Shown here in pieces: positions 6,647 through 43,325 of a stretch of DNA of 64,000 bases; within the stretch, counting starts at the first letter, position 1; each line of letters begins with the position of its first letter. The notes under the pieces were generated by a model. It was not told where the DNA came from, searched no databases, and worked only from the letters and a program-made list of their open reading frames with translations. Position numbers and translations under genes: made by a program. This stretch comes from Terriglobia bacterium. GTDB lineage: Bacteria; Acidobacteriota; Terriglobia; 20CM-2-55-15. The DNA is taken from positions 844,496 to 908,495 of the forward strand of contig OZ253554.1 of the NCBI GenBank assembly GCA_965262675.1, written 5' to 3'.

Positions 6647-6679
6647 GCAGCCCGTGGCGGGCCGCTCGGTCCGAAGGAC

Positions 6680-27071: not shown

Positions 27072-29441
27072 CTACTCGTATCGCAATGCCGACATCGGAT
27101 CGAATCGGGCCGCCCGCCGGGCCGGCAACCACGACGCGACGACGACCAGGGCAATGCCTCCAATCATGACGACGGTGTAGACCCAGGAATCGGCCGCTTC
27201 GATCTCGAACAGGTAGCTTTGCAGGAATCGCGTCAACTCGGCCGACGCGATTGTGCCGAGTGCGAGTCCGAGAATCGCGGGGACAAGACCGTGGCGCATC
27301 ATCTGGAAGATCACATCGCGCGCTCGGGCGCCCATGGCCATTCGAAGGCCGATCTCGCGGGACCGTTGCGCGGTAGAGAACGCGACCACGCTGTAGACGC
27401 CCAGCATTGCCAGCACCAGCGCCGCTCCAGCGAAGGAGGACAGCACGGCAGTCTGGAACCGTTCGCGCTGAACGTTTGTGGCAATAAGCCGGTCCATTGA
27501 AGTCACGGTGACAACGCTTTCGGGCTCGATCCGAAGTATCGCCTGTTCCAGTGAAACCTCGGCCCCGGGGCTCACCTTCGCCACCAGGGTGGCATTTCCG
27601 CTCCCGGGCCGGGGGGGTGGAAGGCCCAGATCCGCCGTGTAGGGTACGTAAAGGTAAGCCAGGGAGTCGCTCCGCATACTCAAGCGCACCCCCCGAACCA
27701 CACCGATCATTGTCGGGGACTCTTGCGCGCCGCTGAATGCTTCGAGCCGCTGCCCGATCGGATTCTGTCCCGGAAAGAACTGCCGGATGATCGATTCGCT
27801 GATGACGACGACAGAATCGCCTGCCGCCACGTCGCTCTCATCGATCCAGCGACCCGACACCAGGGGGATTCCCATCGCCTGCCCGTAGTCCGCGGCCACC
27901 GCTGCCGGGACCATGGCTACGGGGTCTTCCACGCCGGCAGTCATTGCAAGCATGAAAAAACCCTGTCCACCCATCGGAAGCTGTTGTGTCGACGAGGCGT
28001 ATTCCACTTCCGGCAGCGATCGAATCTCTTCCAGTACGGTGTTCAGTAACGCTTGCTGGCTGGAAGCCACGGCATAACGCCGCGGAAGAGAAATTCGGGC
28101 GGTTACCACGTTCTCCGGATCGAAGCCGGGATCGACCGTAATCAACCTCGCGAAACTCTCTATCAGCAGACCGGCGCCGACCAGCAGCACAACCGCAAGC
28201 GAAGTCTGTGCGACAGTCAACACGCTGCGCAGCCATCGCCGATGCCGGGTCTCCGTGGCGCTCGTCGTTCCGTCCTTGAGCGTGTCGTTCAGTTCAAGAC
28301 GCGACGCCCTCAGCGCGGGGACGATTCCAATGGCCAAACCGGACACAAGCGCGACAGCGACAGAGAAGGCGAACACGCGGCCATCGACGGGAACGTCAGC
28401 CATACGTGGAAGCAGCGGTGGCATGTTGGCCAAGGCGGCGGCGCGGATCGAATAGACGGCCAGGAACCCGAGCCCCGCCCCCGAAAAGGTCAGGATCATT
28501 GCCTCGGCAATCATCTGTCGGATCAGGCGCCAGCGGGAGGCGCCCAACGCCCCGCGAATCGACAGTTCCCTTTCTCGCCTCGAAATCCTCGATGCCTGCA
28601 GGTTGACGAGATTCAGAACTCCAATCGACAGAACCATGCCGACAGCGACGGCGAAGATCAGGATGCTTCGTCTGGAATCCGGACCCACAACCCGCTCGGA
28701 CAGCGGCCGCACGACAATGCCCCGTGCGTTCGCTCCGTCGCTCAAACGGTCCCCAAGCAAGTCCATTTCGGCCTGAGCCGATTCGATCGACTCTCCCGGC
28801 ATCAGACGACCCACCACGGCATAGTTCCGGCGGAAGCCCTGGCGAGGCGCCTCAACGGTTGTCACGACCGTTGACGGCGGTCCCGCATCGAAGGGCGACC
28901 GAAACGTTGCCGGAAGGACACCGACGATCGTCATGGCCGGCTGCCCTTCGAGTCGTAACGCCTGACCGATGACATCGGGCCTGCCGCCCCACTTCCCTTG
29001 CCAATAGCTGTAGTCGATTACCGCGGGCTTCGTGCCGTCGGCAAGAAGCTCTTCGGTATCGAACAAGCGGCCAAGTACGGGCTGCACTCGCAACACCTCG
29101 AAATAGCCCGCCGTCACGAAACCGAGGTCGACCGCTTCGGGCGCACCGTCCTGGTCGACGTTCGCGGTGCTCGACGTCGAGGCCGCCAGTCCGGCGAGCG
29201 TACGCGATTCGTCTCGGAAGTCCGCCAGGAGTTCGAGATCGAAGAATCTATCGGCGAAACCGACCAGATCGTCCGGTTCCTCGAACGGAAGGGGCGCCAG
29301 CAGGATCCCGTTGACGATGCTGAACGCGGCCGTGCTCGCCCCGATCGCGATCGTCAGCGTGGCGATTGCGGCGAGAGCGAAGCCCGGACTCCGCGCCAGG
29401 CCGCGGACACCGTATCGGACATTTTTCCAGAGTTCGATCAT
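27072..29441 (-). CDS. ADOP-type duplicated FtsX/MacB-like ABC permease (789 aa)
   Basis: N-terminus LWKNVRYGVRGLARSPGFALAAIATLTIAIGA; two 4-TM FtsX modules separated by large periplasmic domains. Confidence 0.85.
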   Translation of the reverse strand: MIELWKNVRYGVRGLARSPGFALAAIATLTIAIGASTAAFSIVNGILLAPLPFEEPDDLVGFADRFFDLELLADFRDESRTLAGLAASTSSTANVDQDGAPEAVDLGFVTAGYFEVLRVQPVLGRLFDTEELLADGTKPAVIDYSYWQGKWGGRPDVIGQALRLEGQPAMTIVGVLPATFRSPFDAGPPSTVVTTVEAPRQGFRRNYAVVGRLMPGESIESAQAEMDLLGDRLSDGANARGIVVRPLSERVVGPDSRRSILIFAVAVGMVLSIGVLNLVNLQASRISRRERELSIRGALGASRWRLIRQMIAEAMILTFSGAGLGFLAVYSIRAAALANMPPLLPRMADVPVDGRVFAFSVAVALVSGLAIGIVPALRASRLELNDTLKDGTTSATETRHRRWLRSVLTVAQTSLAVVLLVGAGLLIESFARLITVDPGFDPENVVTARISLPRRYAVASSQQALLNTVLEEIRSLPEVEYASSTQQLPMGGQGFFMLAMTAGVEDPVAMVPAAVAADYGQAMGIPLVSGRWIDESDVAAGDSVVVISESIIRQFFPGQNPIGQRLEAFSGAQESPTMIGVVRGVRLSMRSDSLAYLYVPYTADLGLPPPRPGSGNATLVAKVSPGAEVSLEQAILRIEPESVVTVTSMDRLIATNVQRERFQTAVLSSFAGAALVLAMLGVYSVVAFSTAQRSREIGLRMAMGARARDVIFQMMRHGLVPAILGLALGTIASAELTRFLQSYLFEIEAADSWVYTVVMIGGIALVVVASWLPARRAARFDPMSALRYE

Positions 29442-29499
29442 CGTTCCGCCTTTAGCCCGCCTTTCTCACGGGTTTTCGTCGCGAAGAGTCGGAGACGCC

Positions 29500-29600
29500 G
29501 TCAGAGCTACGGCGCGTTCTCAGACGCGTTCCTCGCGTCGGTCGCGCCGGGCGCGTAGCGGCGCGTTCCTCGCGCCGGATCAAGCGCGTCAGGGGGCGTG
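29500..29600. repeat. direct-repeat copy 1 (gcgccgggcgcgtaRcggcgcgttc...cctcgcgccgg...atcaagcgcg); copy 2 is at 35120-35200
   Basis: About 60-70 bp of near-identity in the same orientation, bracketing the degenerate accessory segment 29.6-35.1 kb. Confidence 0.6.
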
Positions 29601-29726
29601 CCTGGCGGATGGATCCGGCGCTGTAGCAGACAACTCGTGAGAAAGACGGGTCAGACAAGACCGAGCCTTTTCGGTTAGTCGCGCCGTAATTTCAATCCGT
29701 AAGCCTTGGAAGCCCGACGCCAAACC

Positions 29727-31264
29727 CTACAGGCTCGCGCGCAAACCCTTCCAGGTGCTGTAACACATGACGATCAGCACCAGCGCAAAGGGGAGACCGG
29801 CCGCGAGAACGGCCGCCTGCGCGGCCACAAGGCCGCCTCCGAGCATCAGCGCGATGGCGACGGCCCCCTCGAAGACGCACCAGAACGCGCGTTGGGCAAC
29901 CGGCGAGTCCAGCTTGCCGCCGGCAGTGATGGTGTCGATGACCAACGATCCCGAGTCGGAGGAGGTGACGAAGAATACCACCACCAGGACGAGGCCGATG
30001 ACCGTGGTGAGGTTCGCAAGCGGCAGAGACTCCAGCATCGCGAACAGGGCAATCTCCGGCTGCTGCGCCTCGACCGCCGCGACGACCTCCGGAGAACCGG
30101 TTTCGATGTACTGCGACACCGCGGTTCCGCCGAAAGCGTTCATCCAGATCGTGACAACCAGCGTCGGGATGATCAGCATGCAGGCGACCGTCTCGCGCAC
30201 CGTTCTGCCGCGCGAAACCCTTGCGACGAACAGGCCGACGAAGGGAGACCACGAGATCCACCAGGCCCAGAAGAATGTCGTCCAGCCGTGCATGAAGTGG
30301 AGATCCTCGCGGCCCACCCAGTTGCTGAGCGGTCCGATCGCCGCGAGATAACTACCGAGGCTGGTCACGGCACCTGTGGCGATGTCTCGCGCCGGCCCGA
30401 CCGCCAGAACGAATACCAGCAGCACCAGGGCGAGCCACAGGTTGGCCTCGCTCAGCCGCTTGACGCCCTTTTCCATCCCGCTCAGGACCGAGGCCAGTGC
30501 CATGCCGGTGATACCGACGATCACCAATACCTCGGTGGCGCCGGTCGTCGGCGCTCCCAAGTGGTCCAGCCCCGCCCTCACCTGTTCGGCGCCCAGCCCG
30601 AGCGACGTCGCCAGACCAAAGAGGGTGGCAAAGACGGCGAGGATGTCGATACAGTGGCCGAACCGGCCCCACACCGCATCCCCCATCAGCGGATAGAACG
30701 CCGACCTCAGCGTCATCGGCAGCCCGAGATTGTACGAGGCGAAGGCGATCGACAGCGCGACCACCGCGTACATGGCCCACCCATGGATTCCCCAATGGTA
30801 GATGGTGCCGGCCATGCCCAGGCGCGCCGCCGCCGCCGTGTCGGCCGGATCGAGGCCGAGCGGCGGTTGCAGGAAATGCTCCACCGGTTCCGACACCCCG
30901 TAGAACATCAGGCCGATGCCCATCCCGCGGCGAAAAGCATGGCAAACCACGCCCACCTGGAGTAGTCGGGCCGGGCATCCGAGCCACCCAGGCGCACGCG
31001 GCCGACGGGCGTTACGATCAACAGCAGGCAGAAGAGCACGAAGAAGTTCCCCGCGCCCATGAACACCCAGTCGAAAGACGACATGAGCCACGCGCGCAGC
31101 GCAACGAAAGCGGTCGCCGCCCCGGCCTGGAAAGTCAGTACCCCCGCGACGAACGCAACGATGGCGAGGCTCGAGACGGCGAAGACCGGATTGTGGATGT
31201 CGAGACCCAAGAACTGGACGTTGTCCTGCCCGAGCTTGTAATTGATCTTCGGGATCTCAGCCAT
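29727..31264 (-). pseudogene. BCCT-family (betaine/carnitine/choline) transporter disrupted by a -1 frameshift near nt 30935
   Basis: N-terminal 118-aa ORF (30908..31264) ends ...WAWFAMLFAAGWASA*, whereas the 454-aa ORF continues the canonical ...GMGIGLMFYGVSEP in another frame. Restoring one G in the run gcgggatggg fuses them. Confidence 0.7.
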
Positions 31265-31334
31265 ATTGTTTTGTCAGCGGCGCTCGAATACCCGGGGCCC
31301 CACCGCGAGGGAAAGCGGGGGAGCCCCGATTCGT

Positions 31335-32372
31335 TCAACTCCCGGTGCCAACGATGAACGCGCCCGGGTTGCCGACGCTGGACCACCCGCCCCGGCCGCC
31401 TTCGTAGTTTCTCAACGTAAAGTCGGGCCTTTCGGAGGGGAGCAACTCGCGGCGGTGCACCCGCTCGCCGGAAAAGACCACCTGGGACGAACCGAGCGCT
31501 CCCCCCCAGATGCCGGAAACCGTGCTGTCGCCGGCGCTGACGAAATGGTCGTGCGTGACGTTCAACTCGAAGCCGCTGAAGTCCTTCCGCGTCACGAAGT
31601 TGGCAACGCCAGCGACCGCGTCCGACCCGTAGGTCGCCGCGGCGCCTTCCTTCAGTACCTCGATCCGATCGATGGCGACCGCCGGGATGGCGTTGATGTC
31701 GACGAATCGGCCTCCGACCAGACGCGCCGGCACGTATGTCTGCCGGCGGCCGTTGATCGATACGAGAGTTCGCGACGCGCCGAGTCCGCGCAGGTTGACG
31801 TTTGAAATCGTCTCGGTGAGGGTAGCGGGCTGGTCGGAATTGTACCAACTGTTCCGCTCGCCGATGACTCCGTGGCTGGCGCCGATGTTCCTGAAGAGGT
31901 CGACGAGTTGGGCCGCCCTCTGCTCCTGCAGCGTTTCACGGCCGACGACGGTGACCGCGTGCGGCAGGTTGATGGCGGGCGCCTCGATCGCCGTGCCGGT
32001 CGCCACCACGGAGATCTGCTCGGCGAACGCTCCGATTCTCATTTCGACATCGAGCGCGGTCATCGCCCCCTCGGCCACCAGTACTCTCTCCCGCTCGAGT
32101 AAGGCGAAGCCGGGCAGATTGAAACTCACGGTGTAGGAACCGGCCGGCAACGAGACGGAGTAGGCCCCGTCCCCGCCGGTAAGGACGATGGAGGGCGCCT
32201 CCAGGTTGGGGCCGGCGATTTCGACCGTGACGCCGGGCAGCACGGCGCCGGTGGCGTCGCTGACGGAACCCGCAACACCAGTGTCCTGCGCCAGCGCCGC
32301 TGCGGGCGCCAGCCACAGAGACGCGAAGACACCCGGATAGACCGATCTTTTTATTTTATCGAGTAGCGTCAC
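31335..32372 (-). pseudogene. TonB-dependent receptor truncated after the plug domain (345 aa; barrel missing)
   Basis: Signal peptide, carboxypeptidase-regulatory-like region and plug motif IEVLKEGAAATYGSDAVAGVANF. Stops about 600 aa short of a complete receptor, 70 nt before the BCCT start. Confidence 0.65.
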
Positions 32373-32776
32373 TATCGATCTCCGGACAGGTATTCATCCC
32401 GTTGTCCAGTCCCCGCACAGACGACTGTCTCGCGCGTGGGTTCGATCTCGCGGAAGTTCTCTCCGTCTTTGGGCCGTCCATTGGTAAGGAGTATACGGTG
32501 TGTGAGTTGTAAGCGCCGGTGAGGTTCAGCGCGTTCCGAGTCGGTCAGTTCAATGGTGGCGACCGGCCGTGGCATTCCTGAAGGATAGGACGCCAAACAA
32601 CTTACGTCAAATTCAGGAACGCTGACGGCGGAGTTATACGACTTGCGAATCAGATGCGACACCACGTTGGTGTCTAACAGCACGACCATGGCCCCGGGCC
32701 CAATCGATGCGAGGCGGTTCGCGCGCGTGCTCGGACGGCGACGATGATTACGATCTTCAACCCGGCGTGTGTTCAA
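32372..32776 (-). pseudogene. degenerate PIN-domain (VapC-like) toxin remnant
   Basis: MVVLLDTNVVSHLIRK is the canonical VapC N-terminus, but the remaining 100 aa lack the PIN acidic residues and core. Confidence 0.35.
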
Positions 32777-32965
32777 AAAAATTCACTTTTGGGTGATCGT
32801 TCACATTCCGCGGGCCGTCCTTTCGGATGACCCGATCTTGTACAGGCCGATCTTCGACGCGACCGAGGCCATCGCCACTTCAATCTGCCGCAAATTCGCT
32901 GCGGTCTGCTCGTCGACCTGTCTCGCGCAGTGGCTGATGCCGACGTAACCTATGTTTCATAATAT

Positions 32966-32998
32966 TCATTGTTTCCCGCATGCCGAAACACTAATATA
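32966..32998 (+). promoter_or_regulatory. sigma70-like promoter (TTGTTT, 17 nt spacer, TAATAT) ending 2-3 nt before the ATG of the 33000 gene, implying a leaderless transcript
   Basis: Read directly in the AT-rich divergent intergenic region 32780-33000. Confidence 0.4.
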
Positions 32999-32999
32999 A

Positions 33000-34112
33000 A
33001 TGGAACACTATTCGCGACAGAGAGCCCTTATGCCTGTAGGGAACAAACAGCAGCCCACCGGAATACAGATCGAGCGCCAGATCGAGCGATTTCTGGCTGA
33101 GCGAATTCCGGCCGGCTGGTCACTCCAAGCCCGGCGAACCGAAATGCTGGCCGGTCGTTACAGTGTGGACCTGCTGGCGGAGATCGCGTCACCCGACGGC
33201 GGGACAGCCGTCCTTGCCGTCGAGATCAAACGAAATCTGGAGCCACGCGACGTCCTCCAGGCAGTCGAGCAGATTTCGATGATCACGGCGAGCGCATTGC
33301 CTCGTGCCGTGCCTGTCGTGGCGGCCGCCTACCTCGCCCCTCGCACCCGTGCCCTGCTTCGTGATCGGGGTGTCGGCTACCTCGATACCACGGGCAACGT
33401 CCGTATCGAAATCTCTACGCCTGGACTGTTCATTTCTACCGACGGGGCCGATCGCAACCCCTGGCCAAGGGATCACAAGCTCCGGTCCCTGCGAGGTCCG
33501 GGTGCTGCCCGGGCCATGAGGGCCATTATCGACACATTTCCTCCATACGGTGTCCGCCAGTTGGCCCAGTCGACCGGAGCGTCGGCACCGACCCTGTCCC
33601 GCGTGCTGGACTTGCTCGAACGCGAGGCAATCGTGACCCGTGCACGCGGGGCCGTATCGACCGTCGATTGGCAGGGCGCCATTCGCCGGTGGGCCGAGGA
33701 CTACGACCAGACCGATTCCAACACACCAACCACGGTTCTCGAGCCACGGGGTCTGCCGGCCCTCGAAAAGAAGCTCCGCGCGAAGAAGTTTGAGTACGCT
33801 GCCACCGGCGCCCTTGCATCTCAGCGATTCGATCCCCTCGCGCCGGCACGGCAGGCGGCCATCTACGTCACCGACGCGCCAAGGTCCATCGACCGCCTGG
33901 ATCTCCGCGAGACCGAAGCCGGTGCCAACGTGGTGCTCCTCGAGCCTCTCGATCCGGTCGTCTTCGATCGGACGGTCGAGCGCGACGGCCTTCTTTGCGT
34001 CGCTCCCAGCCAGCTCGCCGTGGACCTGCTGACCGGACCGGGTCGGGAGCCGTCACAGGGCGAACAGATGTTGAAGTGGATGGAGAAGAACGAGCATGTC
34101 TGGCGGTCCTGA
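33000..34112 (+). CDS. PD-(D/E)xK nuclease-like plus winged-HTH protein (370 aa), first gene of a translationally coupled pair
   Basis: D...AVEIKR (D/EIK) motif in an alpha/beta N-terminal domain; HTH-like GVRQLAQSTGASAPTLSRVLDLLERE; overlaps the next gene by 17 nt. Confidence 0.5.
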   Translation: MEHYSRQRALMPVGNKQQPTGIQIERQIERFLAERIPAGWSLQARRTEMLAGRYSVDLLAEIASPDGGTAVLAVEIKRNLEPRDVLQAVEQISMITASALPRAVPVVAAAYLAPRTRALLRDRGVGYLDTTGNVRIEISTPGLFISTDGADRNPWPRDHKLRSLRGPGAARAMRAIIDTFPPYGVRQLAQSTGASAPTLSRVLDLLEREAIVTRARGAVSTVDWQGAIRRWAEDYDQTDSNTPTTVLEPRGLPALEKKLRAKKFEYAATGALASQRFDPLAPARQAAIYVTDAPRSIDRLDLRETEAGANVVLLEPLDPVVFDRTVERDGLLCVAPSQLAVDLLTGPGREPSQGEQMLKWMEKNEHVWRS

Positions 34113-34941
34113 CCCGCTCTACGTTCGCGCCCGCACTGCACTGCTCGACGCCGCCGATGCGCTGGCCGAACAGTTCGACGCTGTCGTGCTCGTCGGTGCT
34201 CAGGCCATCTATCTACACACCGGCGACGCCGACTTCGCTGCCGCCGAGTACACGACCGACGCAGACTTCTGCATCGCGCCGGCGGATCTGCGCGAAACGC
34301 CGCTTCTCGCCGAATTGCTCGAGACGCACGGGTTCTCGCTCAGAGAACATCCCGGGGCGTGGATGAGCCCGGATGGGATACCCATCGACCTGATGGTTCC
34401 CGAAACGCTGGCCGGAGCCGGTTCCAGGGGAGCTCGCCTTGGACTCCACGGCAATAGAGCGGCAAGGCGAGCCACGGGCCTCGAGGGAGCACTGGTTAAC
34501 CGGGAGCGCATGGAAATCACGGCACTCGATCCGGGCGTGGAGCGATCATCTGCAATGCTGGTCGCCGGACCCGCGGCGCTGCTCGTGGCAAAGGTCCACA
34601 AGATCGCCGAGCGCACCGGGACTCGTGACCGAGTCAGGGACAAGGACGCGTTGGATGTCCTTCGTCTCCTGCAGGCGATTGACACGCCGACGTTCGCGGC
34701 AGGCTTGGCGCAACTTGCGAGCCACGAGATAAGCGCGCGGGTCACAGCCGAAGCCGTGTCCCAGCTCGCGCCCTTGTTTGGCAACCCAGACTCCGTGGGC
34801 GTCACCATGGCGATCCGCGCGGCCCGTGCGGGCACCGAGGCCGACATGATTGCCGCTTCGTTCGGTGCGCTCGTGTCGGATCTCCTCACTGCCTCGACCG
34901 TCGGACGCTCCACCAACCCGTCGAACCCGTCGGCGAGGTAG
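34096..34941 (+). CDS. nucleotidyltransferase-fold-like protein (AbiEii-like?), second gene of the pair
   Basis: VVLVGAQAIYLHTGDADF...TTDADFCI resembles a minimal NTase G-x(n)-D-x-D signature; 281 aa. Confidence 0.4.
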   Translation: MSGGPDPLYVRARTALLDAADALAEQFDAVVLVGAQAIYLHTGDADFAAAEYTTDADFCIAPADLRETPLLAELLETHGFSLREHPGAWMSPDGIPIDLMVPETLAGAGSRGARLGLHGNRAARRATGLEGALVNRERMEITALDPGVERSSAMLVAGPAALLVAKVHKIAERTGTRDRVRDKDALDVLRLLQAIDTPTFAAGLAQLASHEISARVTAEAVSQLAPLFGNPDSVGVTMAIRAARAGTEADMIAASFGALVSDLLTASTVGRSTNPSNPSAR

Positions 34942-35152
34942 CGCGGCGCGAAGCGGCGGAGATCCTTGTCTGGATCGGCAGCGTAGGTCATGCGGTATTG
35001 ACGTAGGAGCATCGCAGCCACAACGGCGGGGATAATTCCCCAGATTCCTCACTCTCGACTTGGACCTGATTTTCGGGGAAGGTCACATCCACTGTAAAGA
35101 CGGCCGTGTTCAACGGCGCATTCCGATGCGCCGGGCGCGTAACGGCGCGTTC

Positions 35153-35314
35153 TCAGGCGCGTGCCTCGCGCCGGTCGCGCCGGATCAAGCGCGCCAAGGC
35201 CACCGACAGCACCGCCACGGCAGTGAAGCCCGGACTCCTGGACAACGAACGCGCGGTGTAGATCGCGTCCTTCGACAGCCGATCGATGGCGGAAAAGGAG
35301 CGCATGGCAGTCAT
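35153..35314 (-). pseudogene. 5' remnant (about 45 codons) of a second ADOP permease gene fused to direct-repeat copy 2
   Basis: Minus-strand translation ...AIYTARSLSRSPGFTAVAVLSVALA aligns with the N-terminus of 27072..29441. The gene body is absent. Confidence 0.5.
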
Positions 35315-35382
35315 TTTATCAGAGGCCGCGTTTCGCCAAACTCACGCCGCCCAGGCGCGTCCACGAACCGCGAGTTGGCGGC

Positions 35383-35808
35383 TTATTTGTTGCCTCTCAG
35401 CAGGCAAATGCCCATCGCGCACGAAAGCAGCGGCAGAGCGGCATCGATGAACCCCCACACGAGAGAGACGGTCTCGGGCCCCACTCCGGTAAAATCGGGG
35501 CTCCGGAAGTTGAACCAGTTCCAGAAAAACAGAATACCCACGAACAGGAAACCGTAGAACAGCGTGCTGGCTGCCAGGAACTCGCGGGTAATCGGCGCGC
35601 CGCCTTCATGGTTGGCGGCTCTCTTGCGGATGTAGCTGAATCTCACGCCCAGCACGATCGCCAACGCCATGAATGGGTTAACGATGTTCCAGATCGGGCT
35701 GTAGGGGCTGGCGTCGGTTGACGCGTAATACAGCGGCTCCACGATCGTGTGAACCGCGACCGCCACGCCGATGACGATGAGACCTGCACCGACAATTCGC
35801 CGGAGCAT
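35383..35808 (-). CDS. hypothetical integral membrane protein (4 TM, 141 aa)
   Basis: Hydrophobic helices; no family recognised. Confidence 0.45.
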   Translation of the reverse strand: MLRRIVGAGLIVIGVAVAVHTIVEPLYYASTDASPYSPIWNIVNPFMALAIVLGVRFSYIRKRAANHEGGAPITREFLAASTLFYGFLFVGILFFWNWFNFRSPDFTGVGPETVSLVWGFIDAALPLLSCAMGICLLRGNK

Positions 35809-36071
35809 ATCCGTGAGTTACCCCCCCTTGCATTGTCCTCACTTTCATCCTTGACTATACGCAACCACAGCCACGGAGGTGCGCAACAGTGTTGTGGCGG
35901 GGCGACGGCAAAAGGCGGATGTGAAGCCGGGTCCTGCATACCCGGCGGCATAGTCCGCATTTTCCATGCGGACAGACTGCCACTTGGTGACCAAGTGAAT
36001 GGGTTCGCATGCGCAAAATCGTGGGTGAACTAATCCGGCGCACATGCGCCGGATGCAACCCGCTAAGCCGA

Positions 36072-36416
36072 CTACAAATCCAGGACCTGCCGGAGTCCGG
36101 AATCGACGCGCGCCATGAGTTTCCGGGAAATTTGTCCAACCCGATCGGAAAGACAGGATTTGTCGAGAGTCACGATCTGCATGATGTTGGCGACAGAGTC
36201 TTGCGGGAGCCCGGTGCTTGTCGCTGGAAGCAGGGTGTTCCCGGGAGCGCCGAGTAGGCGCGTATTCGACGTGAGGATAACACCAAGGATTGTTCTCAAC
36301 CTGCTTCGATTGAAAGCATCCGCCTGAACGATGAGGACGGGGTGGCGAAAACCAGGTTCCGATGCTCGCGGAACATCCAGATCAGCCCACCATACCTCGC
36401 GGCGCGCAACTACCAT
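36072..36416 (-). CDS. MazF/PemK-family type II toxin (endoribonuclease)
   Basis: RREVWWADLD...GFRHPVLIVQADAFN...ILTSN matches the PemK/MazF fold signature. Confidence 0.7.
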   Translation of the reverse strand: MVVARREVWWADLDVPRASEPGFRHPVLIVQADAFNRSRLRTILGVILTSNTRLLGAPGNTLLPATSTGLPQDSVANIMQIVTLDKSCLSDRVGQISRKLMARVDSGLRQVLDL

Positions 36417-36646
36417 TTGCCAGAGCTGACGCTTCGAGCCTGGGCGGTCCTCAACGCCGGATCAAGGCCGTTCGATTCATCGGCGAAAACCTCGTTTAGC
36501 TTAGACGTCACATCCTCGTCACGGTGTTTCGCCAAGTATTCAGAAACCGCTGTGGCGTACAATTCGCTCCTCGACACTCCTTGCCGTTCCGCCAATTCGT
36601 CAGCAGACAGGAACAGTTCGTCCGGTAGTGAGATTGCTGTTTTCAT
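36410..36646 (-). CDS. ribbon-helix-helix (CopG/MazE-like) antitoxin
   Basis: MKTAISLPDELFLSADELAERQGVSRSELYATAVSEYL; overlaps the toxin by 7 nt. Confidence 0.65.
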   Translation of the reverse strand: MKTAISLPDELFLSADELAERQGVSRSELYATAVSEYLAKHRDEDVTSKLNEVFADESNGLDPALRTAQARSVSSGKW

Positions 36647-37395
36647 ACCGAGATTATACCAGCACGGCGACCCTCAAGGCTTGGTTGGGCGACGGCTAGC
36701 AGTGAATTCCGATTGAGCCGCGTGGTATGACCCGCCGGGAGAGAAGGCATTTCGCGGGGAGGAAGCTGTTTTTGTCAAGGGCTACGAAGCCGCTGAAAAA
36801 CCAAGGGGACATTCAAGTCGGTTTGGCCGCTGCCGGATGCTCCAGCCCAGATTGAATTAGCGCGCGGCAGCGAGGACGAGTGATGGGTTTGACAAAAAAA
36901 TGGCTTTGTGATGCGCATCGCGCCAAGCGGTGGTGATCGTATCTCCGAGGCGTTGGAGAAAGACCATCTGATTATCGGATGGTCGGCTGCGAAAGGCCTT
37001 CTTGATGAGGAGCTTCAATGGGAAGGGTTCCGGGAAATCATTCGTAAGACGTACTGCGCCGATGCTGAGAATCTGCGGCAGGCTGTACAGCGCTAGCCCG
37101 CATGGATCACCAGTCGAAGTTTTGGCGTCATTTTGTCGCCGGTAATCGTCTGCGACGAAGTGATGAGGCGTGAAGGGGCGTCTGAGGGCGAAACGAGGCG
37201 TTTTTGAAGACGTGGGACGCGACATTACCTCCATCACCGCTCCGATGGCTACCGGCTGGAGCGACAGTTGCCGGGTGGGTTTCGCACCCACTGAAGATCG
37301 GCGCCTTTTCACGGCGCACTGAGAAAGGCGGGCTAATCGGGACTACCGCGTCGGGGCGGGCGCTGCCGGCATCAACCCAGCCTACTCATTGACAA

Positions 37396-37701
37396 GTGTC
37401 TATAGACACATTACATTCATGGGTGATACGGAGCTTCCGACATCGCGGACTCAAGCGCTTCTACGAGCGCGGAGATCGAAGTCTCATTCGTCCCGATCTG
37501 CACGACCGGGTGGAAGTGATGCTCGCCCAGCTCGATGTCGCCGGCTCCCCTGAATCCATGCGCCTTCCCCAATACCGGCTGCACAGCCTCAAGGGAAACC
37601 TGAAGGGCTATTGGTCGGTCACTGTGAGGGCAAATTGGCGCATCATTTTCCGCTTCGAGAACGGGAACGTTCACGACGTGGAGTTGATCGACTACCACTG
37701 A
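37396..37701 (+). CDS. higB: HigB-family (RelE-fold) type II toxin
   Basis: IRSFRHRGLKRFYERGD...LPQYRLHSLKGNLKGYWSVTVRANWRIIFRFENGNVHDVELIDYH matches the plasmid-maintenance-killer HigB pattern. Confidence 0.75.
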   Translation: MSIDTLHSWVIRSFRHRGLKRFYERGDRSLIRPDLHDRVEVMLAQLDVAGSPESMRLPQYRLHSLKGNLKGYWSVTVRANWRIIFRFENGNVHDVELIDYH

Positions 37702-37717
37702 TGAAAGGAGAAACACC

Positions 37718-38011
37718 ATGCCGATGAAGAACCCGCCGCACCCCGGCAAGGTGGTACGCATATCCTGCCTGGAGCCGCTCGGCCTCAGCGTCACCGAAGG
37801 CGCGAAAGTCCTGGGAGTCAGCCGCCAGGCGCTCTCGAACGTCGTGAACTGCCGCGCCCGCATCTCGAGCGACATGGCGGTGCGACTGGCCAAAGCCTTC
37901 GGTTCGACCACGGAAACCTGGATACGTTTACAGGCCGCCTACGATGTCGCGCAGGCCCAAGCTCGAGAGGATGAGATCGAAGTCGAGCGGTACGAGCAGC
38001 AGCCGGCATGA
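37718..38011 (+). CDS. higA: HigA antitoxin (XRE-family HTH)
   Basis: NPPHPGKVVR...LGLSVTEGAKVLGVSRQALSNVVNCRARISSDMAVRLAKAFGST.ETWIRLQ. Confidence 0.75.
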   Translation: MPMKNPPHPGKVVRISCLEPLGLSVTEGAKVLGVSRQALSNVVNCRARISSDMAVRLAKAFGSTTETWIRLQAAYDVAQAQAREDEIEVERYEQQPA

Positions 38012-38012
38012 G

Positions 38013-38165
38013 GGAACAGTAGATGATGGCTCTCAGGGAGAGAATGGATGAGTTCCCCCCGGCGCGTCGGAATAAAGTGGAGGAGCGAGCCAAGGCGTTG
38101 ATCGCCGAAGAGATGTCCCTGCACGATCTGCGCAGGGCCCGGGAACAAACGCAGGTGCGCGTCGC
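38013..38165 (+). pseudogene. truncated XRE-type antitoxin fragment (50 aa)
   Basis: ...LIAEEMSLHDLRRAREQTQVRVA then stops before any HTH, typical of the N-terminal arm of RelE/ParE-associated antidotes. Confidence 0.3.
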
Positions 38166-38220
38166 TAGGGCCTGAAGGTTTCTGACGGAACTGGAAGTAA
38201 ACGCAGACGATGCGGGGGCG

Positions 38221-38340
38221 GGCCGGGGCCAGAATCCTGCGGATTCTGCTTGGGGCTTCCAGCCGGGGCCAGAATCCTGCGGATTCTGCTTGGGGCTTCC
38301 AGCCGGGGCCAGAATCCTGCGGATTCTGCTTGGGGCTTTG
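38221..38340. repeat. 3 x 40-bp identical tandem repeat, each unit carrying the palindrome CAGAATCCTGCGGATTCTG
   Basis: agccggggccagaatcctgcggattctgcttggggcttcc repeated three times; no variable spacers. Confidence 0.85.
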
Positions 38341-38952
38341 CTAATACCCGATTTCAGCGATGCCCGGCGTCAGCCGGATCTGCTCGATCCCCCAGGGAAT
38401 CGTGAACGGCGCGTCCAGGTCGACATCCGGATACCGGGAATTGACGAAACCCTCGACCAGCACGTCGATCACAACCAGGGGAACGGACAACCCGTCCAGT
38501 CGTACCTCGCGCAACTCGAACCGGCCGCGACCGTCGTCCCCGCTCAAGGCGCCCTCGGCGAAAATAGTATGCGTCCCTTCAAAAAGAGTATCGACAATGA
38601 CGTTCCCGGTTCGGTTCTCGGCGTCGAACGTCAGTTCAGTCTCGGCGGAGATAATCCCGTCCGTCACCCGGATGTCGATGGAATCGACCCGGGGAGGGAT
38701 GTCTTCTTCCATCCAGAAGAGGACGAAAGATTCCATCTCGATCTCGCTGACCCGGATCGTGTCCTGCCCCGGGGCACGTCCGGTATCGAGTTCGCGTTGT
38801 CGAATTTCCTGGATCCTGGAACCCAGAAGGTTAGCGGCTTCCGGGGAAACGGATGTGAACTCCTGAGCGGACGAAGGCAGCGAAGCGCATGACAACACAG
38901 ACACCAACGCCATGCAGACCAAACGACCTTGAACCGCCGCAGATCGAGACAT
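38341..38952 (-). CDS. hypothetical secreted protein (203 aa)
   Basis: Signal peptide LVCMALVSVLSCASLPSSAQE; no family recognised. Confidence 0.5.
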   Translation of the reverse strand: MSRSAAVQGRLVCMALVSVLSCASLPSSAQEFTSVSPEAANLLGSRIQEIRQRELDTGRAPGQDTIRVSEIEMESFVLFWMEEDIPPRVDSIDIRVTDGIISAETELTFDAENRTGNVIVDTLFEGTHTIFAEGALSGDDGRGRFELREVRLDGLSVPLVVIDVLVEGFVNSRYPDVDLDAPFTIPWGIEQIRLTPGIAEIGY

Positions 38953-38963
38953 GCCTCGATTAT

Positions 38964-39731
38964 CTATCGAATGACTTGAAAAGTCCGGCTCCAGCGTGTC
39001 TTGCGGAAAAAATTCAAACCGAGATCCAGAACTTGCTGAACTCGGGCGCCGACGCCGGTCCGCGTGTAGGTTGCCGCGTCGGCTTCGTAGGACCAGTAGA
39101 CGACCAGGGCCTTGCCGACGATGTCCTCGCGGGGCACGAACCCCCAGTAACGACTGTCGGAACTGTTGTCCCGATTGTCGCCCATCACAAAGTAGTGCCC
39201 TTCGGGAACAACGAGTTCGTCGCCATCGACATAATCCTCATACGGCCAGAACGGACGGCCATTGGTGTCGCTGTACAGCCGGTCGGGATGCGGCTGAGGA
39301 GGAAAGTAATCGCGAAAAGGGTCCACATACGTCCCCGGCGGACTGGTATGCATCTTGTAAGGTTCATCGAGCGCTTCCCCGTTCACGAACGCCTGTTGAT
39401 CGACGATACGGACACGCTCGACCGGCAATCCGACCACACGTTTCACATAGTGCTTCGTGAGATCGTCGGGATAGCGAAAAACGATGACGTCGCCTCGATC
39501 GATGTCCCGAAACGGCAACACGGCATCCAATAACGATCCGGGAGTGCCGAACGCGAACTTGTTGACGAGCAGGTGATCGCCAACCAGAAGATTCTCCTCC
39601 ATTGAAGGGGTGGGAATCTTGAACGCCTGGATGATAAACGTGGTCCCGAACAGTGCCAGGATCACGGTGATCACGAGCGATTCGAAATACTCGCGGGCGG
39701 TCGACTTGGTGATGTTCAGTTCGTCGGACAT
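38964..39731 (-). CDS. lepB: signal peptidase I
   Basis: Catalytic Ser box SMEENLLVGDHLLVNKF, RVVGLPVERV, GDNRDNSSDSRYWGFV. Confidence 0.9.
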   Translation of the reverse strand: MSDELNITKSTAREYFESLVITVILALFGTTFIIQAFKIPTPSMEENLLVGDHLLVNKFAFGTPGSLLDAVLPFRDIDRGDVIVFRYPDDLTKHYVKRVVGLPVERVRIVDQQAFVNGEALDEPYKMHTSPPGTYVDPFRDYFPPQPHPDRLYSDTNGRPFWPYEDYVDGDELVVPEGHYFVMGDNRDNSSDSRYWGFVPREDIVGKALVVYWSYEADAATYTRTGVGARVQQVLDLGLNFFRKTRWSRTFQVIR

Positions 39732-39813
39732 ACCTATCCTCTGTAACGAAACCGTTAGACACTATAGCGTTTATGACCCGTTTGTTCCAGCGATGGCCGT
39801 CCGGCGCAAAAAA

Positions 39814-40533
39814 TCAGCCCGCGGCAGAAGCATCTTCATTCCGGATCGCTTCAAGAGCGCGCATCGCCGACGCCTGCTCGGCCGCCTTCCTGGTCGTTCC
39901 GCTGCCGGAAGCGACGGGCACACCATCGATCAGAACTTCCACTGTAAAGAGTCGCCGATGATCAGGCCCGGTCTCTTCGACCAGCCTGTAGCGGGCCGCG
40001 CGGCTATCGGACTGCAGCGTCTCCTGCAATATCGACTTGAAATTGGACACGGGGCCTTCGCCGCCCGCCGCAATCTCGTCGATCTGTGTACTGAACAGCC
40101 CCCGGACGGTCTCGCGCGCGACCTCGATACCGCCGTCCAGATAAATGGCCGCGAGCACGGCCTCGAACGAGTCCACCAGGAGTGCGGGCTTGCGCCGGCC
40201 ACCGGTCTTTTCTTCGCCCTTCCCCAGTCGCAGGTACTCGCCGAGGGAAATCCGTTGGCCGTAATGCACAAGGTTGGCGGCGCTTACCAGAAAGGACTTG
40301 AGCCTCGATAGCTCACCCTCATCGAGATCCGGCCGGACGCGGTACAAACAGTCGCCAATCAGGAAACCAAGCACCGAATCGCCGAGGAATTCCAGTCGTT
40401 CGTTGTCTTCGACAGTCAGGGAATCTTGTTCGTGAGCAAACGAACTGTGAGTCAAGGCGAGTTCAAGCAGTTGGCGGCGCTCGAAACGATAGCCCAGGGT
40501 GTCTTCAAGTTCTTCGAGAGGTCTGCCGTCCAT
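39814..40533 (-). CDS. rnc: ribonuclease III
   Basis: ERLEFLGDSVLGFLIGDCLY signature plus a C-terminal dsRBD (GPDHRRLFTVEVLIDG...); start taken at MDGRPLEELEDTLGYRF. Confidence 0.9.
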   Translation of the reverse strand: MDGRPLEELEDTLGYRFERRQLLELALTHSSFAHEQDSLTVEDNERLEFLGDSVLGFLIGDCLYRVRPDLDEGELSRLKSFLVSAANLVHYGQRISLGEYLRLGKGEEKTGGRRKPALLVDSFEAVLAAIYLDGGIEVARETVRGLFSTQIDEIAAGGEGPVSNFKSILQETLQSDSRAARYRLVEETGPDHRRLFTVEVLIDGVPVASGSGTTRKAAEQASAMRALEAIRNEDASAAG

Positions 40534-40552
40534 GAGCGCACCGCGTGGGGCG

Positions 40553-41773
40553 TCAATTGCCGGGCAGCGACTGTCCAACGGCATCGATGAGTTCTTCCAT
40601 CCCGTCGAGATCTCCATGAACCCGTTCGTAGACCCGAATCAGTCCATCTCGGGCTTCGGTGCCGGGATACCCGAGGTATACCGCGCGGGCCAGGGCCTCG
40701 ATTGCTTCGGCGCCCTTCTGATCGTTGGCGTAGGCCACGCCCAGCCGGTAGTAGGTTGTGGAGTCGCGCCCGTTTGAATCCAACGCCGCCAGGTACTCTG
40801 CCTGAGCATCCGCAAACCGGCCCCGGTCGAAGTCAATCAGGCCCAGGGCGTTGCGTATCCGGGAACGCAAATCGGCTTCTTGCTCGGGCGGCAGGACGCT
40901 CCCTTCCGGGCCCGACACGATGGAATCCAGGGTCTCGAGCGCTTGGGCGGCATAACCTTCGGCCTCGGTCCTTCGATCCGCCCGCGAACCATCGTCCGAG
41001 GGCAAACTCTCGGCAATCGTTGTCGACATCGTGATCAATGTGAACAGATCGTCGGGAAACAGTTGCAGGGCGCGCCGGCCGTAGTCGATGACTTCGTCCG
41101 TGTTCTGCAATCCCCCGTGTGCCACCATCAGGTTCCGAAAGAAAAAACCCTCGCTGGCACGATGACGCACGGAAGCTTCCGCATACTCTGGAGAATCCGG
41201 CGCCGGGGACGGCGCCGTGATTGAACGCGCCCGCAGGTCGGACGCGCTCTCCAACCCCAGTTCGGCGAACCGAACGGCATCCCTGTAATTACCCAGTCCA
41301 TTGTGGGCCTCGGTCAACGATTCGTAGTACGACACCTTGATCCGTTGGTACTGGAGTTCGGCCTCGGTGAAACCCGGAAGTGTTTCAGCATCCGGCAACG
41401 ACGCCAGGCGGCCTTCCATAAAGGCGGTCTCGGCTTCGAGGGCAGTCTCGGCAATTCCGATGACCGCCGCGAAGTCGCCCATCGACGCAAAAGCGTTCCA
41501 ACGAGCGCGTAGAACGACGGGACGAAGTTCCGATTCGGGATAGCGAACAAGAAACGACTCGGTCAGGTCGAGCCGCGCCGCCATATCGGCCTCGTCCTGA
41601 ATGTCCCTGAATGCGTCGGCTTCGAATTCCGACCGGACCATCGGTGTGAACGGATTGGACTGGGCCAGGGCAAAACTCGCCAGAGCGGCGATCGCCGCCG
41701 ACAGCGCCAGCATCGAACGGCACCGTGCCACGACCGGCCCGCCCGATTCCCTGCCTGGCAGCTTCAACATCAT
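40553..41773 (-). CDS. TPR-repeat protein with a signal peptide
   Basis: Multiple TPR-like helical repeats. The upstream 170 codons of ORF 40553..42286 overlap the next gene and are not coding. Confidence 0.6.
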   Translation of the reverse strand: MMLKLPGRESGGPVVARCRSMLALSAAIAALASFALAQSNPFTPMVRSEFEADAFRDIQDEADMAARLDLTESFLVRYPESELRPVVLRARWNAFASMGDFAAVIGIAETALEAETAFMEGRLASLPDAETLPGFTEAELQYQRIKVSYYESLTEAHNGLGNYRDAVRFAELGLESASDLRARSITAPSPAPDSPEYAEASVRHRASEGFFFRNLMVAHGGLQNTDEVIDYGRRALQLFPDDLFTLITMSTTIAESLPSDDGSRADRRTEAEGYAAQALETLDSIVSGPEGSVLPPEQEADLRSRIRNALGLIDFDRGRFADAQAEYLAALDSNGRDSTTYYRLGVAYANDQKGAEAIEALARAVYLGYPGTEARDGLIRVYERVHGDLDGMEELIDAVGQSLPGN

Positions 41774-41807
41774 GAACTCGTCCCGGCGGCGCGAACCAAC
41801 CCCGATC

Positions 41808-43325
41808 TCAGAGTCCGCACCCGCCGCCGAACGGCGCTTCGATACCGTTTCGCGCCTCAGCCTGCGCGCCGTTGTTGTCGTCGCCGAGACCGGCGCCGGC
41901 TTCGTATTGAACCAGAGCGGCCGCCCGGTCGCATTCGATGTCCAGAATCCGGCCGAGGAATACGTGAGACCATGCGCGCATTGGAAGTTCGGCGGATTCG
42001 CTTTCGATGGTCTGCGCGAAATAGTCCTTCGCCATCTCGGAATCGCCCTCGCGGCTCGCCAGCAGAGCCAGCCCGTACAGCGCCGACCCATTCGCATCGT
42101 CGTATTGCGCGAGCACCGTTTCGAAAGCGGTCCGCGCCGTGTTGTCGTCTCCCGAGTTGAATGCGGCCTGAGCCTCAAGCAGAAGGTCCTGAACCGGATT
42201 CGACGGCGGTGGCTCGGGCACTTCGGCGCGGGGGCCCAGGTCAGGCGCCAGGGCGATCGCATGGAACCGCTCATCGAAGCGCTCACGCTCAGCCTGGAGT
42301 TCTATCTCCAACGCCATTTCGGGAAAATATTCGCGAATCCCGACAGGAGTCTGCTCGAACCGCGCCAGACTATCCATGAAATAGGGTGTCAACAGCAAAC
42401 CTGACCGGTAAGCCGTATCCACAAGACTGTCAACGTTGTCCGCATCTCCGTCGATTCGCATCTCCACGGCCTGAATCAGCGATTCGGTGACCATGACCTC
42501 GAAATCGTCGGTATATTCCGATCGAACTCCTTCGATATCTCGAACCCAGTCCACCATGGCGTTGCTCTCGACCAACTCCTCGCGGCTTCTCCGGACAATC
42601 GCGTCGAGCGCCACGTGGAGATAGCCGTGCCGCACGTCCTCAACCGGATTCTGAGCGTCATAGCCGAAAACCAGATAGAGATTGTCGGTGTAGTTCCTGA
42701 CATGCACGCTGTTGACTGGCGCCGAAAGTTCCAGATATGCGATCAGGCGCCGGCCATCGATTGTTCCCGTCTGCGCCCGGATATACGCCCGGGTCTCAAC
42801 GACGGACTGACGCAACGGCCCCGCCATGACATCCAGAACCTGGTCATAGACCGGCGCCAGTTGTACCCACATCTGGCTGATGTCTGCTTCAAAGTAGAAT
42901 TCGTTGAGCAGTGGGAGGAAGCCATCGAGATCGCGTGCGTCGGGGGGGATGAACAGGTCGTCGGTGACGAAATCCATATCGGGCGGATAGGTCAGATTCA
43001 GGGCAAGGGAAACGTACCGCGCCAATTCGTCTTCGTGTGGCGTATCTCCCCTGTTTTCGGCGTAATATTCAGCCAGCCGTGTTCGAAGGTCGGGATCGAT
43101 GCTTACCAGTCGTTCCCGGACCGCTTCACGCACGGGATGATACTGGGGTGCGAACTCGACGTCGAACCCGGCAACGTTCAGGGCCGCGGTAACGGTAAAC
43201 ACGCGAATGTCGCGGTCGACCGTGGCGCTGGACTGAGAATCGTTAACGATCTGAGCGTCCGCGATGAACAAGGTTCCCCCAAGGACGGACACGACCGAGA
43301 CAGCTAAAATCCAATGACGCAGCAT
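41808..43325 (-). CDS. hypothetical secreted protein with a C-terminal TPR-like region
   Basis: Signal peptide MLRHWILAVSVVSVLGGTLFIADAQ chosen as start; no family recognised. Confidence 0.55.
   Translation of the reverse strand: MLRHWILAVSVVSVLGGTLFIADAQIVNDSQSSATVDRDIRVFTVTAALNVAGFDVEFAPQYHPVREAVRERLVSIDPDLRTRLAEYYAENRGDTPHEDELARYVSLALNLTYPPDMDFVTDDLFIPPDARDLDGFLPLLNEFYFEADISQMWVQLAPVYDQVLDVMAGPLRQSVVETRAYIRAQTGTIDGRRLIAYLELSAPVNSVHVRNYTDNLYLVFGYDAQNPVEDVRHGYLHVALDAIVRRSREELVESNAMVDWVRDIEGVRSEYTDDFEVMVTESLIQAVEMRIDGDADNVDSLVDTAYRSGLLLTPYFMDSLARFEQTPVGIREYFPEMALEIELQAERERFDERFHAIALAPDLGPRAEVPEPPPSNPVQDLLLEAQAAFNSGDDNTARTAFETVLAQYDDANGSALYGLALLASREGDSEMAKDYFAQTIESESAELPMRAWSHVFLGRILDIECDRAAALVQYEAGAGLGDDNNGAQAEARNGIEAPFGGGCGL

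Follow-up and report, generated by a model that had tools for sequence, protein, structure and literature searches.

Two copies of a GC-rich hairpin repeat in a Terriglobia genome probably represent a MITE-like element and an intragenic insertion, not island borders

We analyzed a stretch of 64,000 nucleotides from a Terriglobia bacterium (here called the window) and, within it, the interval 29452-35330, which carries two related GC-rich repeats, copy A and copy B, associated with genes for ADOP permeases. An earlier inspection of the letters alone (the sequence-only reading) had taken this interval for a decaying or recombined accessory island bracketed by direct repeats and containing only broken genes. 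Comparison with close relatives led us to a different reading. The repeats are likely to be copies of a short GC-rich hairpin module, similar to repetitive extragenic palindromic (REP) sequences, in two different settings: copy A belongs to an element resembling a miniature inverted-repeat transposable element (MITE), copy B is an insertion within a gene, and neither is the border of an island. We see the locus itself as a plasticity zone of an ordinary kind that has undergone one 2.45-kb replacement; the initial observation was largely right, and its interpretation was largely wrong.

The repeat is a hairpin mosaic present twice in the window

The features on which this reading rests are as follows.

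27072-29441, minus strand: ADOP-A, an intact permease of 789 aa (TIGR03434 and Pfam FtsX, MacB_PCD twice)
29456-29650, no strand assigned: miniature non-coding element of 195 bp with ends CCCGYCTTTCTCACGRGTT, 14 nt upstream of the ADOP-A start
29489-29598, minus strand: repeat copy A, units of the type GGCGCG-AGGAA-CGCGCC, the variable core of the 195-bp element
35086-35314, minus strand: 5' remnant of ADOP-B (41 ADOP codons, repeat codons with an in-frame TGA at 35153-35155, then NTAVFTV)
About 35102-35203, minus strand: repeat copy B in the codons of ADOP-B transmembrane (TM) helix 1, placed by alignment with 11 ADOP paralogs

A 25-mer, GAACGCGCCGYTACGCGCCCGGCGC, was found at 29544-29568 and 35128-35152 and nowhere else in the 64 kb (0.00 occurrences expected from 100 shuffles), and the same was true of an 18-mer, GCGCTTGATCCGGCGCGA, at 29570-29587 and 35175-35192 (0.33 expected). 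The two copies are in direct orientation, 5.6 kb apart. The motif had been described as a direct repeat of about 65 bp. Its two occurrences were borne out, exactly two in 64 kb where none was expected, but it is not one clean 65-mer: the best ungapped match between copies A and B covers 62 nt at 81% identity, and the repeat is a gapped mosaic of hairpins of about 17 nt (GGCGCG-N5-CGCGCC), of which copy A has about 1.5 units more than copy B. The hairpin consists of a 6-bp GC stem and a 5-nt loop, and its tandem unit is 28 nt long (GAGGAACGCGCCGCTACGCGCCCGGCGC; on the plus strand, GTAG-C-GGCGCG-TTCCT-CGCGCC). We counted 22 copies of the palindrome GGCGCG-TTCCT-CGCGCC over five loci, in agreement with the imperfect palindromes of 20 to 40 nt that characterize REPs. 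A closing stem is present around copy A (a 22-nt inverted repeat) and absent from copy B, whose fold gave z = -0.55. An integron attC reading of the repeat was dropped, as the R''/R' core sites were absent and there was no integrase.

For comparison, an ADOP-A search of genome contigs yielded a sister genome, a Terriglobia metagenome-assembled genome (L001; nucleotide synteny, 92 to 95%), and further loci were added through protein searches and exact look-ups (L029, L030, L031, L036, L037, L038, L039, and L040). L029 is near L001, L036 and L039 are about 96 to 97% identical to the window, and L030 is 98.3% identical across window positions 29651-42899; L038 is a short contig. L040 is a different part of the L001 contig, L037 is a receptor locus at 63% identity, and L031 carries a two-gene module of the window in an unrelated context. 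The L039 assembly is short-read and SPAdes-style (Illumina), and several other relatives have long-read-style contig names.

A 195-bp element with conserved ends has copy A as its variable core

The hairpin module that was first noticed is only the variable cargo of the 195-bp element. The inverted-repeat arms of the element (29456-29477 and 29629-29650) are 22 nt long and 86% complementary, and a 19-nt terminal consensus matched just the two element ends within the 64 kb. The same ends, which form terminal inverted repeats (TIRs) of 19 to 22 nt as MITEs do, were also present in L036, L001, L029, and L040. In minus-strand reading, the window element is flanked by CTGA (29651-29654) and CTAA (29452-29455).

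Elements with these termini occupied three sites. Site 1, that of the window element, was filled in the window and in L036, with the same flanks; in L030, L039, L001, and L029, it was empty to the base. At this site, the window has GTCTGA, then the element, then CTAAAGGCGG, where L039 has GTCTAAAGGTGG; the empty site of L039 is TTGTCTAAAGGTGG. At site 2, just downstream of ADOP-A, elements of 1050 bp (L001) and about 670 bp (L029) were found, and the site was empty in the window, L030, and L036. Empty sites hold a single CTAA or CTGA at site 1 and a single CTAC at site 2. Site 3 is on the L001 contig at a distance of about 210 kb (L040). The copy there, of 175 bp, lies 540 nt downstream from an ADOP paralog and matched the window element at its ends with 100% identity over 52 nt and 97.7% over 43 nt. 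In the alignments, about 36 nt on the left and about 45 nt on the right were kept across sites, and similarity ended exactly at the element ends, whereas the core was variable, differing in the L036 copy and consisting of unrelated sequence in the L040 copy.

The polymorphism of presence and absence, with exact boundaries at sites 1 and 2, and the occurrence of copies of 165 to 195 bp without a real open reading frame (ORF) at three distinct sites agree with the small, non-coding, dispersed character of MITEs. To judge from these comparisons, the 195-bp element fits a MITE; the weak points are that the duplications are imperfect and that no transposase was identified. A transposase recognizing its inverted repeats would move it.

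The 195-nt stretch also folded strongly as RNA (-105.6 kcal/mol, z = -4.27 versus shuffles). This fold, closed by a long stem, and the fact that all three element sites lie less than 550 bp from an ADOP gene would suit an ancestral structured cis-regulatory RNA, a leader or terminator of ADOP genes that was lost in some genomes. We consider such an origin very improbable: relative to ADOP genes, the element occurs in both orientations, once upstream and twice downstream; its termini are conserved and its core is not; and base-exact losses would be needed in four genomes. Moreover, an Rfam gathering scan and a tRNA scan of the whole window returned no match. A promoter/terminator consensus scan added nothing.

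Copy B interrupts the first transmembrane helix of a second ADOP gene

By alignment, copy B appears to be an old insertion of the hairpin unit into ADOP-B. The ORF at 35153-35314 on the minus strand (53 codons) encodes the N-terminus of an ADOP protein (residues 14-41 matched TIGR03434 profile positions 2-29, E = 5.7e-6). The sequence-only reading had described an ADOP 5' remnant fused to the repeat, and this proved correct: the ORF continues into repeat codons and meets a TGA that belongs to the repeat. Where the 11 ADOP paralogs have IGA of LALGIGANTAIFS, ADOP-B has the insert; the family reads LALG-IGA-NTAIFS in the first TM helix, and paralog P0245, which is 61% identical to ADOP-B, is uninterrupted.

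Full ADOP-B genes were found in L001 (880 aa), L029 (852 aa), and L039 (849 aa), all in frame, with the insert contributing 17 to 45 extra residues. L029 and L039 carry one 28-nt unit, and L001 carries four (84 nt more, with the frame still open); unit number would change by slippage, 1 and 4 units both being in frame. An allele with an extra partial unit and the in-frame TGA is common to the window, L030, L036, and L038. Because L036 and L038 have the TGA yet retain the entire ADOP-B body, the stop is older than the replacement of that body in the window/L030 lineage. Furthermore, the ratio of nonsynonymous to synonymous substitution rates (dN/dS) of the ADOP-B body was 0.26 to 0.31 among genomes all carrying the insert, and therefore ADOP-B stayed under selection after the insertion.

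Observations that weigh against the proposed reading

Several results count against the interpretation of the repeats as a hairpin module carried by a MITE-like element and inserted into a gene. Of the 4-nt flank pairs at the three sites, CTAC/CTAC matches fully; CTGA/CTAA and CTTG/CTAG are only three-quarters identical, always with the third base differing, and the target duplication is thus not clean. The constant CTA of the flanks may be part of the element. Because every examined locus had been chosen around an ADOP gene, sampling may account for the apparent association with these genes. Copy number looks low, with two loci in 64 kb of the source genome. No transposase with matching ends was found in the window or among the insertion sequence (IS) genes of L040, and a search for element ends beside an IS4/IS5-like transposase at the L040 edge found none; mobility is therefore inferred solely from presence/absence and the multiple sites. 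For site 2, insertion and precise loss were not polarized, there being no outgroup. Classical REPs are expected to carry GTAG, and this tag was present in 8 of the 22 hairpins, with GTTCTCA, GTTCAAC, or GCTAA in the rest. A scan of JGI metagenomes with the 25-mer gave no matches, and a degenerate terminal-repeat pattern gave four solo matches in them, without a partner arm, which we took as chance. Finally, selection on the ADOP-B body is unexpected, since an Arg-rich, charged insert in TM helix 1 should disrupt it.

Most genes between the repeat positions are ancestral

The other features of the interval are listed below.

29727-31264, minus strand: BCCT transporter gene with a one-base deletion in a G run
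31335-32372, minus strand: plug-only TonB-dependent receptor ORF of 345 aa (Pfam CarboxypepD_reg and Plug, with a short barrel stub)
32373-32631, no strand assigned: ancestral sequence upstream of the receptor gene, homologous in all relatives without the imported segment; no family match
32632-32689, minus strand: 19-codon stub MVVLLDTNVVSHLIRKSYN at the edge of the imported segment, VapC-like by eye only
32632-35085, no strand assigned: segment specific to the window/L030 lineage, 2.45 kb in place of the ADOP-B body
33000-34112, plus strand: 370-aa protein (360 aa in the relatives' gene calls) with a weak NucS-like nuclease region and a winged helix-turn-helix (wHTH)
34096-34941, plus strand: 281-aa protein with a 17-nt overlap with the upstream gene and a predicted Pol-beta-type nucleotidyltransferase fold

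In minus-strand order from 35314 to 27072, the window holds the 53-codon ORF, copy B, the 370-aa and 281-aa plus-strand genes, a 134-codon ORF, the receptor ORF, the split BCCT gene, copy A, and ADOP-A. In L001, L029, L036, and L039, the order was lepB, a 203-aa gene, a small membrane gene, full ADOP-B, the plug-only receptor, BCCT, ADOP-A, and VOC. The comparison showed this order to be ancestral, and since all four relatives have it, the same holds for the genes that it places between both repeat positions.

These results bear directly on the view that 29452-35330 is an accessory island, inserted or excised via recombination between the direct repeats and carrying decaying cargo. Two significant copies in direct orientation, the ADOP remnant, the truncated receptor, the frameshifted BCCT gene, and a fall in GC content at 32250-33250 (to 55 to 56% at 32500-33250) all speak for it. 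However, the receptor and BCCT genes lie between both positions in every covering relative, as does the ADOP-B body where the two-gene module is absent. Copy A is absent from four relatives with unchanged gene content, including L030, which carries the accessory module. The real indel, 32632-35085, has neither end within a repeat, and the receptor and BCCT genes are under purifying selection. No integrase or tRNA was found in the window, nor was any transposase, including among the scanned large ORFs, and the core genes of the interval were present in all relatives. We therefore give the island very little credence. What survives of the original claim is that the locus has recombined, that the second ADOP gene is destroyed, and that a 2.45-kb foreign piece is present, starting about 20 to 40 bp from copy B; the repeats are not borders, and decay is not uniform.

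A two-gene module replaced the body of ADOP-B

The segment at 32632-35085 is the only true accessory DNA between the repeats. It had no nucleotide similarity to L001, L029, L036, or L039, which hold the ADOP-B body there, and L030 was 99% identical over 32954-34956. Comparison of the relatives showed that, in the window/L030 lineage, this piece took the place of the ADOP-B body when the gene had already been interrupted; the replacement would stem from illegitimate recombination near the hairpin cluster. An equal length of the replaced and replacing segments (2455 bp) was set aside as a coincidence, the L029 comparison giving 2437 versus 2453 bp. The 134-aa ORF at the edge of the segment had been called a degenerate VapC/PIN gene; neither it nor the stub, taken as 23 aa, had Pfam, NCBIfam, or PDB support, and the ORF is a chimera in which 19 imported codons run into ancestral non-coding DNA.

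The first protein of the module (370 aa) matched NF002876 over residues 24-126 (E = 2.9e-5) and, weakly, GntR, MarR, and Crp helix-turn-helix models over residues 172-225 (E of about 1e-3). The second (281 aa) had >3000 homologs at 66 to 97% identity in several phyla and no Pfam domain. Its AlphaFold2 model (pLDDT, 84.6; pTM, 0.87) gave ANT(2'')-Ia, mimivirus poly(A) polymerase, CCA-adding enzyme, and cGAS as the best Foldseek matches, all weak (E of about 0.08; probability, 0.96 to 0.98). Residues G34, D55, D57, and D98 were invariant, and this set (G34, D55xD57, D98) would fit the predicted Pol-beta-type nucleotidyltransferase fold. Searches of both proteins with PADLOC, PHROGs, Pfam at E = 10, and PDB phmmer gave no family assignment.

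The module (32954-34956) was 92% identical in nucleotides and 89% identical in protein to L031 (1-8862). There, the 360-aa and 281-aa genes directly follow PglX-like methyltransferase, PglZ, and BrxL-like genes and are followed by a 1443-aa ORF without a family, in a defense-island context. In L031, visual reading alone placed an IS6-like transposase fragment upstream of the module, and it was not used as evidence.

In its architecture, the module resembles AbiE, a type IV toxin-antitoxin and abortive infection system, by analogy of sequence and predicted fold. Shared features are two overlapping genes, a putative wHTH protein upstream, a protein of about 280 aa with G...DxD...D and a predicted nucleotidyltransferase fold downstream, and a location in variable regions, which in L031 is beside BREX genes. 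The upstream protein differs in being larger and in having a nuclease-like N-terminal region, and AbiEi and AbiEii (DUF1814) models gave no match in PADLOC, Pfam, or NCBIfam.

The BCCT and receptor genes show purifying selection

The reported -1 frameshift in the BCCT gene is present in the window assembly: the G run reads GGG at 30927-30929, where five relatives have GGGG. Two ORFs result, 30908-31264 (minus strand; Pfam BCCT positions 1-90) and 29727-31091 (minus strand; positions 85-484). The five relatives with GGGG include the Illumina/SPAdes assembly, and GGG is unique to the window assembly. Adding one G restored a 512-aa BCCT ORF that was 99% identical to P0001 (a cluster of 22 sequences); the gene is intact in L029, L030, L036, L039, and the P0001 cluster. 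The repaired gene had a dN/dS of 0.115 and was 98.8 to 99.3% identical in five relatives. We infer that the frameshift arose very recently as a private mutation or else reflects a consensus error. ADOP-A itself scored 696.7 bits against TIGR03434 (cutoff, 622.3), as expected of a full-length protein, and its ortholog in L001 was 89% identical, with a dN/dS of 0.30.

The region from 29700 to 31800, which covers BCCT and the 3' part of the receptor gene, was 97 to 100% identical to five relatives, compared to 91 to 97% in flanking genes; the synonymous rate (dS) was 0.03 in this tract versus 0.13 to 0.23 in the flanks. Identity stepped at the copy A site, from 95.7% on one side to 98.3% on the other in L030 and from 92.2% to 97.2% in L039. 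These values suggest that the BCCT region is a recently exchanged or swept tract with an edge at the copy A site.

Frameshifts were also seen elsewhere in the relatives, at L001 9812 (window 29830), where TT is reduced to T near the BCCT 3' end, and at L030 9610 (window 35704), where G4 becomes G5 in a 141-aa membrane ORF. Because L001 and L030 carry frameshifts of their own, homopolymer indels, be they real or consensus errors, recur in this set of assemblies. One could extend this to the whole locus and ascribe the repeats, frameshift, and truncations to misassembly or long-read consensus errors, as the BCCT change is confined to this assembly and long-read relatives show homopolymer frameshifts. 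The chance of this is next to negligible: the receptor truncation and the ADOP-B insert, as well as the TGA allele and the site-1 element, are each found again in independent assemblies, short-read ones among them.

The receptor does stop after its plug, as had been stated, having CarboxypepD_reg and Plug only, compared to about 950 to 1075 aa in full-length relatives, and tblastn detected no barrel remnant elsewhere in the window. The possibility that the ORF continues in an alternative assembly did not hold, the stop being at the same codon in six assemblies (the window, L001, L029, L030, L036, and L039). Pairwise dN/dS was 0.09 to 0.24, with 16 nonsynonymous and 40 synonymous changes relative to L001, and the ORF is under purifying selection. 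The description of the interval as containing only broken genes is therefore wrong for the receptor ORF, which is conserved, and doubtful for BCCT, whose defect is a single homopolymer base peculiar to this assembly.

In L037, whose receptor is 63% identical, the barrel is retained and the VOC gene follows directly; therefore, BCCT and ADOP-A replaced the barrel in the clade ancestor, and the plug part has been kept since. The full-length receptor of L037 is interrupted at 6960-7100 by a 44-nt perfect tandem duplication, at the GNPG position where the gene of the window clade ends; the coincidence of duplication and truncation may be fortuitous or may mark a fragile site.

A bolder interpretation would make the 28-nt array in ADOP-B TM helix 1 a tolerated slippage on/off switch, that is, a REP-derived contingency locus, and the plug-only receptor a functional stand-alone plug protein. 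In-frame alleles, with 1 or 4 units, would then yield a functional permease that includes the Arg-rich insert, and the gene would be switched off in all others. If true, both would be unrecognized uses of "broken" sequence in Terriglobia, but we regard the proposal as quite improbable.

Relation to known repeat systems

The 195-bp element shares many properties with bacterial MITEs (Correia/NEMIS, ERIC, and Nezha): a non-coding copy of 165 to 195 bp with longer composite relatives, TIRs of about 19 to 22 nt, short and partly imperfect flanking direct repeats, a strong hairpin fold, and insertion beside genes at several sites with presence/absence polymorphism between close relatives. It differs in that no cognate transposase was identified, the flanking repeats are imperfect at two of three sites, and copy number is apparently low. 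Moreover, its core is a fast-changing REP-like hairpin array, and the 670- to 1050-bp versions in relatives use other hairpin units.

The hairpins, in turn, share with REPs and bacterial interspersed mosaic elements (BIMEs) (Di Nocera et al. 2013, PMC3733652) the 6-bp GC stem, the 5-nt loop, GTAG in the tandem unit, clusters or arrays of varying copy number, intragenic copies, and a clear GTAG/CTAC array in the source genome. They differ in that the tag is absent from most copies and in that very few loci were found here, in 64 kb plus about 65 kb of sister sequence read, compared to hundreds. Intragenic REP clusters encoding 43 to 82 aa have been reported, as have tyrosine transposases of Acidobacteria that lie between long TIRs and are accompanied by families of TIR repeats (PMC3733652).

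A related explanation is that the hairpin is a classical REP/BIME moved by a REP-associated tyrosine transposase (RAYT), with the outer inverted repeats either incidental or of a tyrosine-transposase TIR family as reported in Acidobacteria. The GTAG of the 28-nt unit, the textbook GTAG...CTAC array at 6679-7326 of the window, and the published GTAG REPs, intragenic clusters, and acidobacterial TIR families (PMC3733652) are in line with it. We nevertheless find it unlikely: the tag is missing from 14 of the hairpins, no RAYT gene (Y1 transposase) was present among the scanned large ORFs of the window, and the L040 element copy has no such hairpin. Because of this last copy, element ends and hairpins are separable.

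In-frame palindromic insertions in protein genes were reportedly described as Rickettsia palindromic elements by Ogata and coworkers (Ogata et al.) in 2000. The palindromic insert of ADOP-B is similar in leaving the frame open in three relatives, with the host body under purifying selection, and differs in being a slippage-prone 28-nt array, not a multiple of three, inside a TM helix; in addition, the window allele has a stop and its gene has since been destroyed. In-frame palindromic repeats within genes are a known phenomenon, and the Rickettsia elements are mentioned in the same context (PMC3733652).

This case shows how a plausible call of a repeat-bounded island made from sequence alone can dissolve on comparison with close relatives. 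It also documents a miniature element that looks active, together with a family of REP-like hairpins, in uncultured Terriglobia, for which there are few descriptions of elements of this type. Two puzzles emerge, a plug-reduced receptor under purifying selection in six assemblies and an ADOP permease whose frame stays open and whose body stays under selection although a charged repeat is inserted in its first TM helix. The mechanisms are of known kinds, and no major question is opened.

Other repeats and variable blocks in the window

Beyond the interval, the window carries a second variable block.

35877-38163, no strand assigned: second variable block (MazF and antitoxin, HigB-like and HigA)
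36072-36416, minus strand: MazF (Pfam PemK_toxin), with an overlapping antitoxin at 36410-36646 (minus strand)
37396-37701 and 37718-38011, plus strand: HigB-like protein (weak RelE match) and HigA (TIGR02607, 101 bits)

This toxin-antitoxin block was present in the window and L030, and L036 and L039 were without a larger interval containing it (35474-38342). In L001 and L029, about 700 bp of other hairpin repeats stood in place of 35877-38163. At the edge of the block, 38222-38341 holds three perfect or near-perfect 40-bp tandem units, each with the hairpin CAGAATCC-TGC-GGATTCTG; L030 has four units at this array, each with a loop one base longer.

Long arrays of another hairpin unit, GCGGGCAGGATGCCCGC, occupy L001 2940-3700 and 12412-13462 and L029 4800-5300 and 14037-14709 and include a 380-bp tandem duplication; this unit had no matches in the window at up to 2 mismatches. 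At 6679-7326, between a DUF4340 gene and an amidohydrolase gene, a tandem array with a 139-bp period (4.6 copies, 93% matches) consists of head-to-head GTAG...CTAC hairpins, such as cTGTAGGTCCGGTCTACGACCGGAC and GAGCGGTCACAGACCGCTCCTAC, and looks like a textbook REP/BIME cluster. Large helicase-nucleases are often seen in defense regions; one such protein of 1988 aa is encoded at 46672-52638 on the minus strand (DUF4011, AAA_11/AAA_12 helicase, an MTES_1575 restriction-endonuclease-like domain, and DUF3320).

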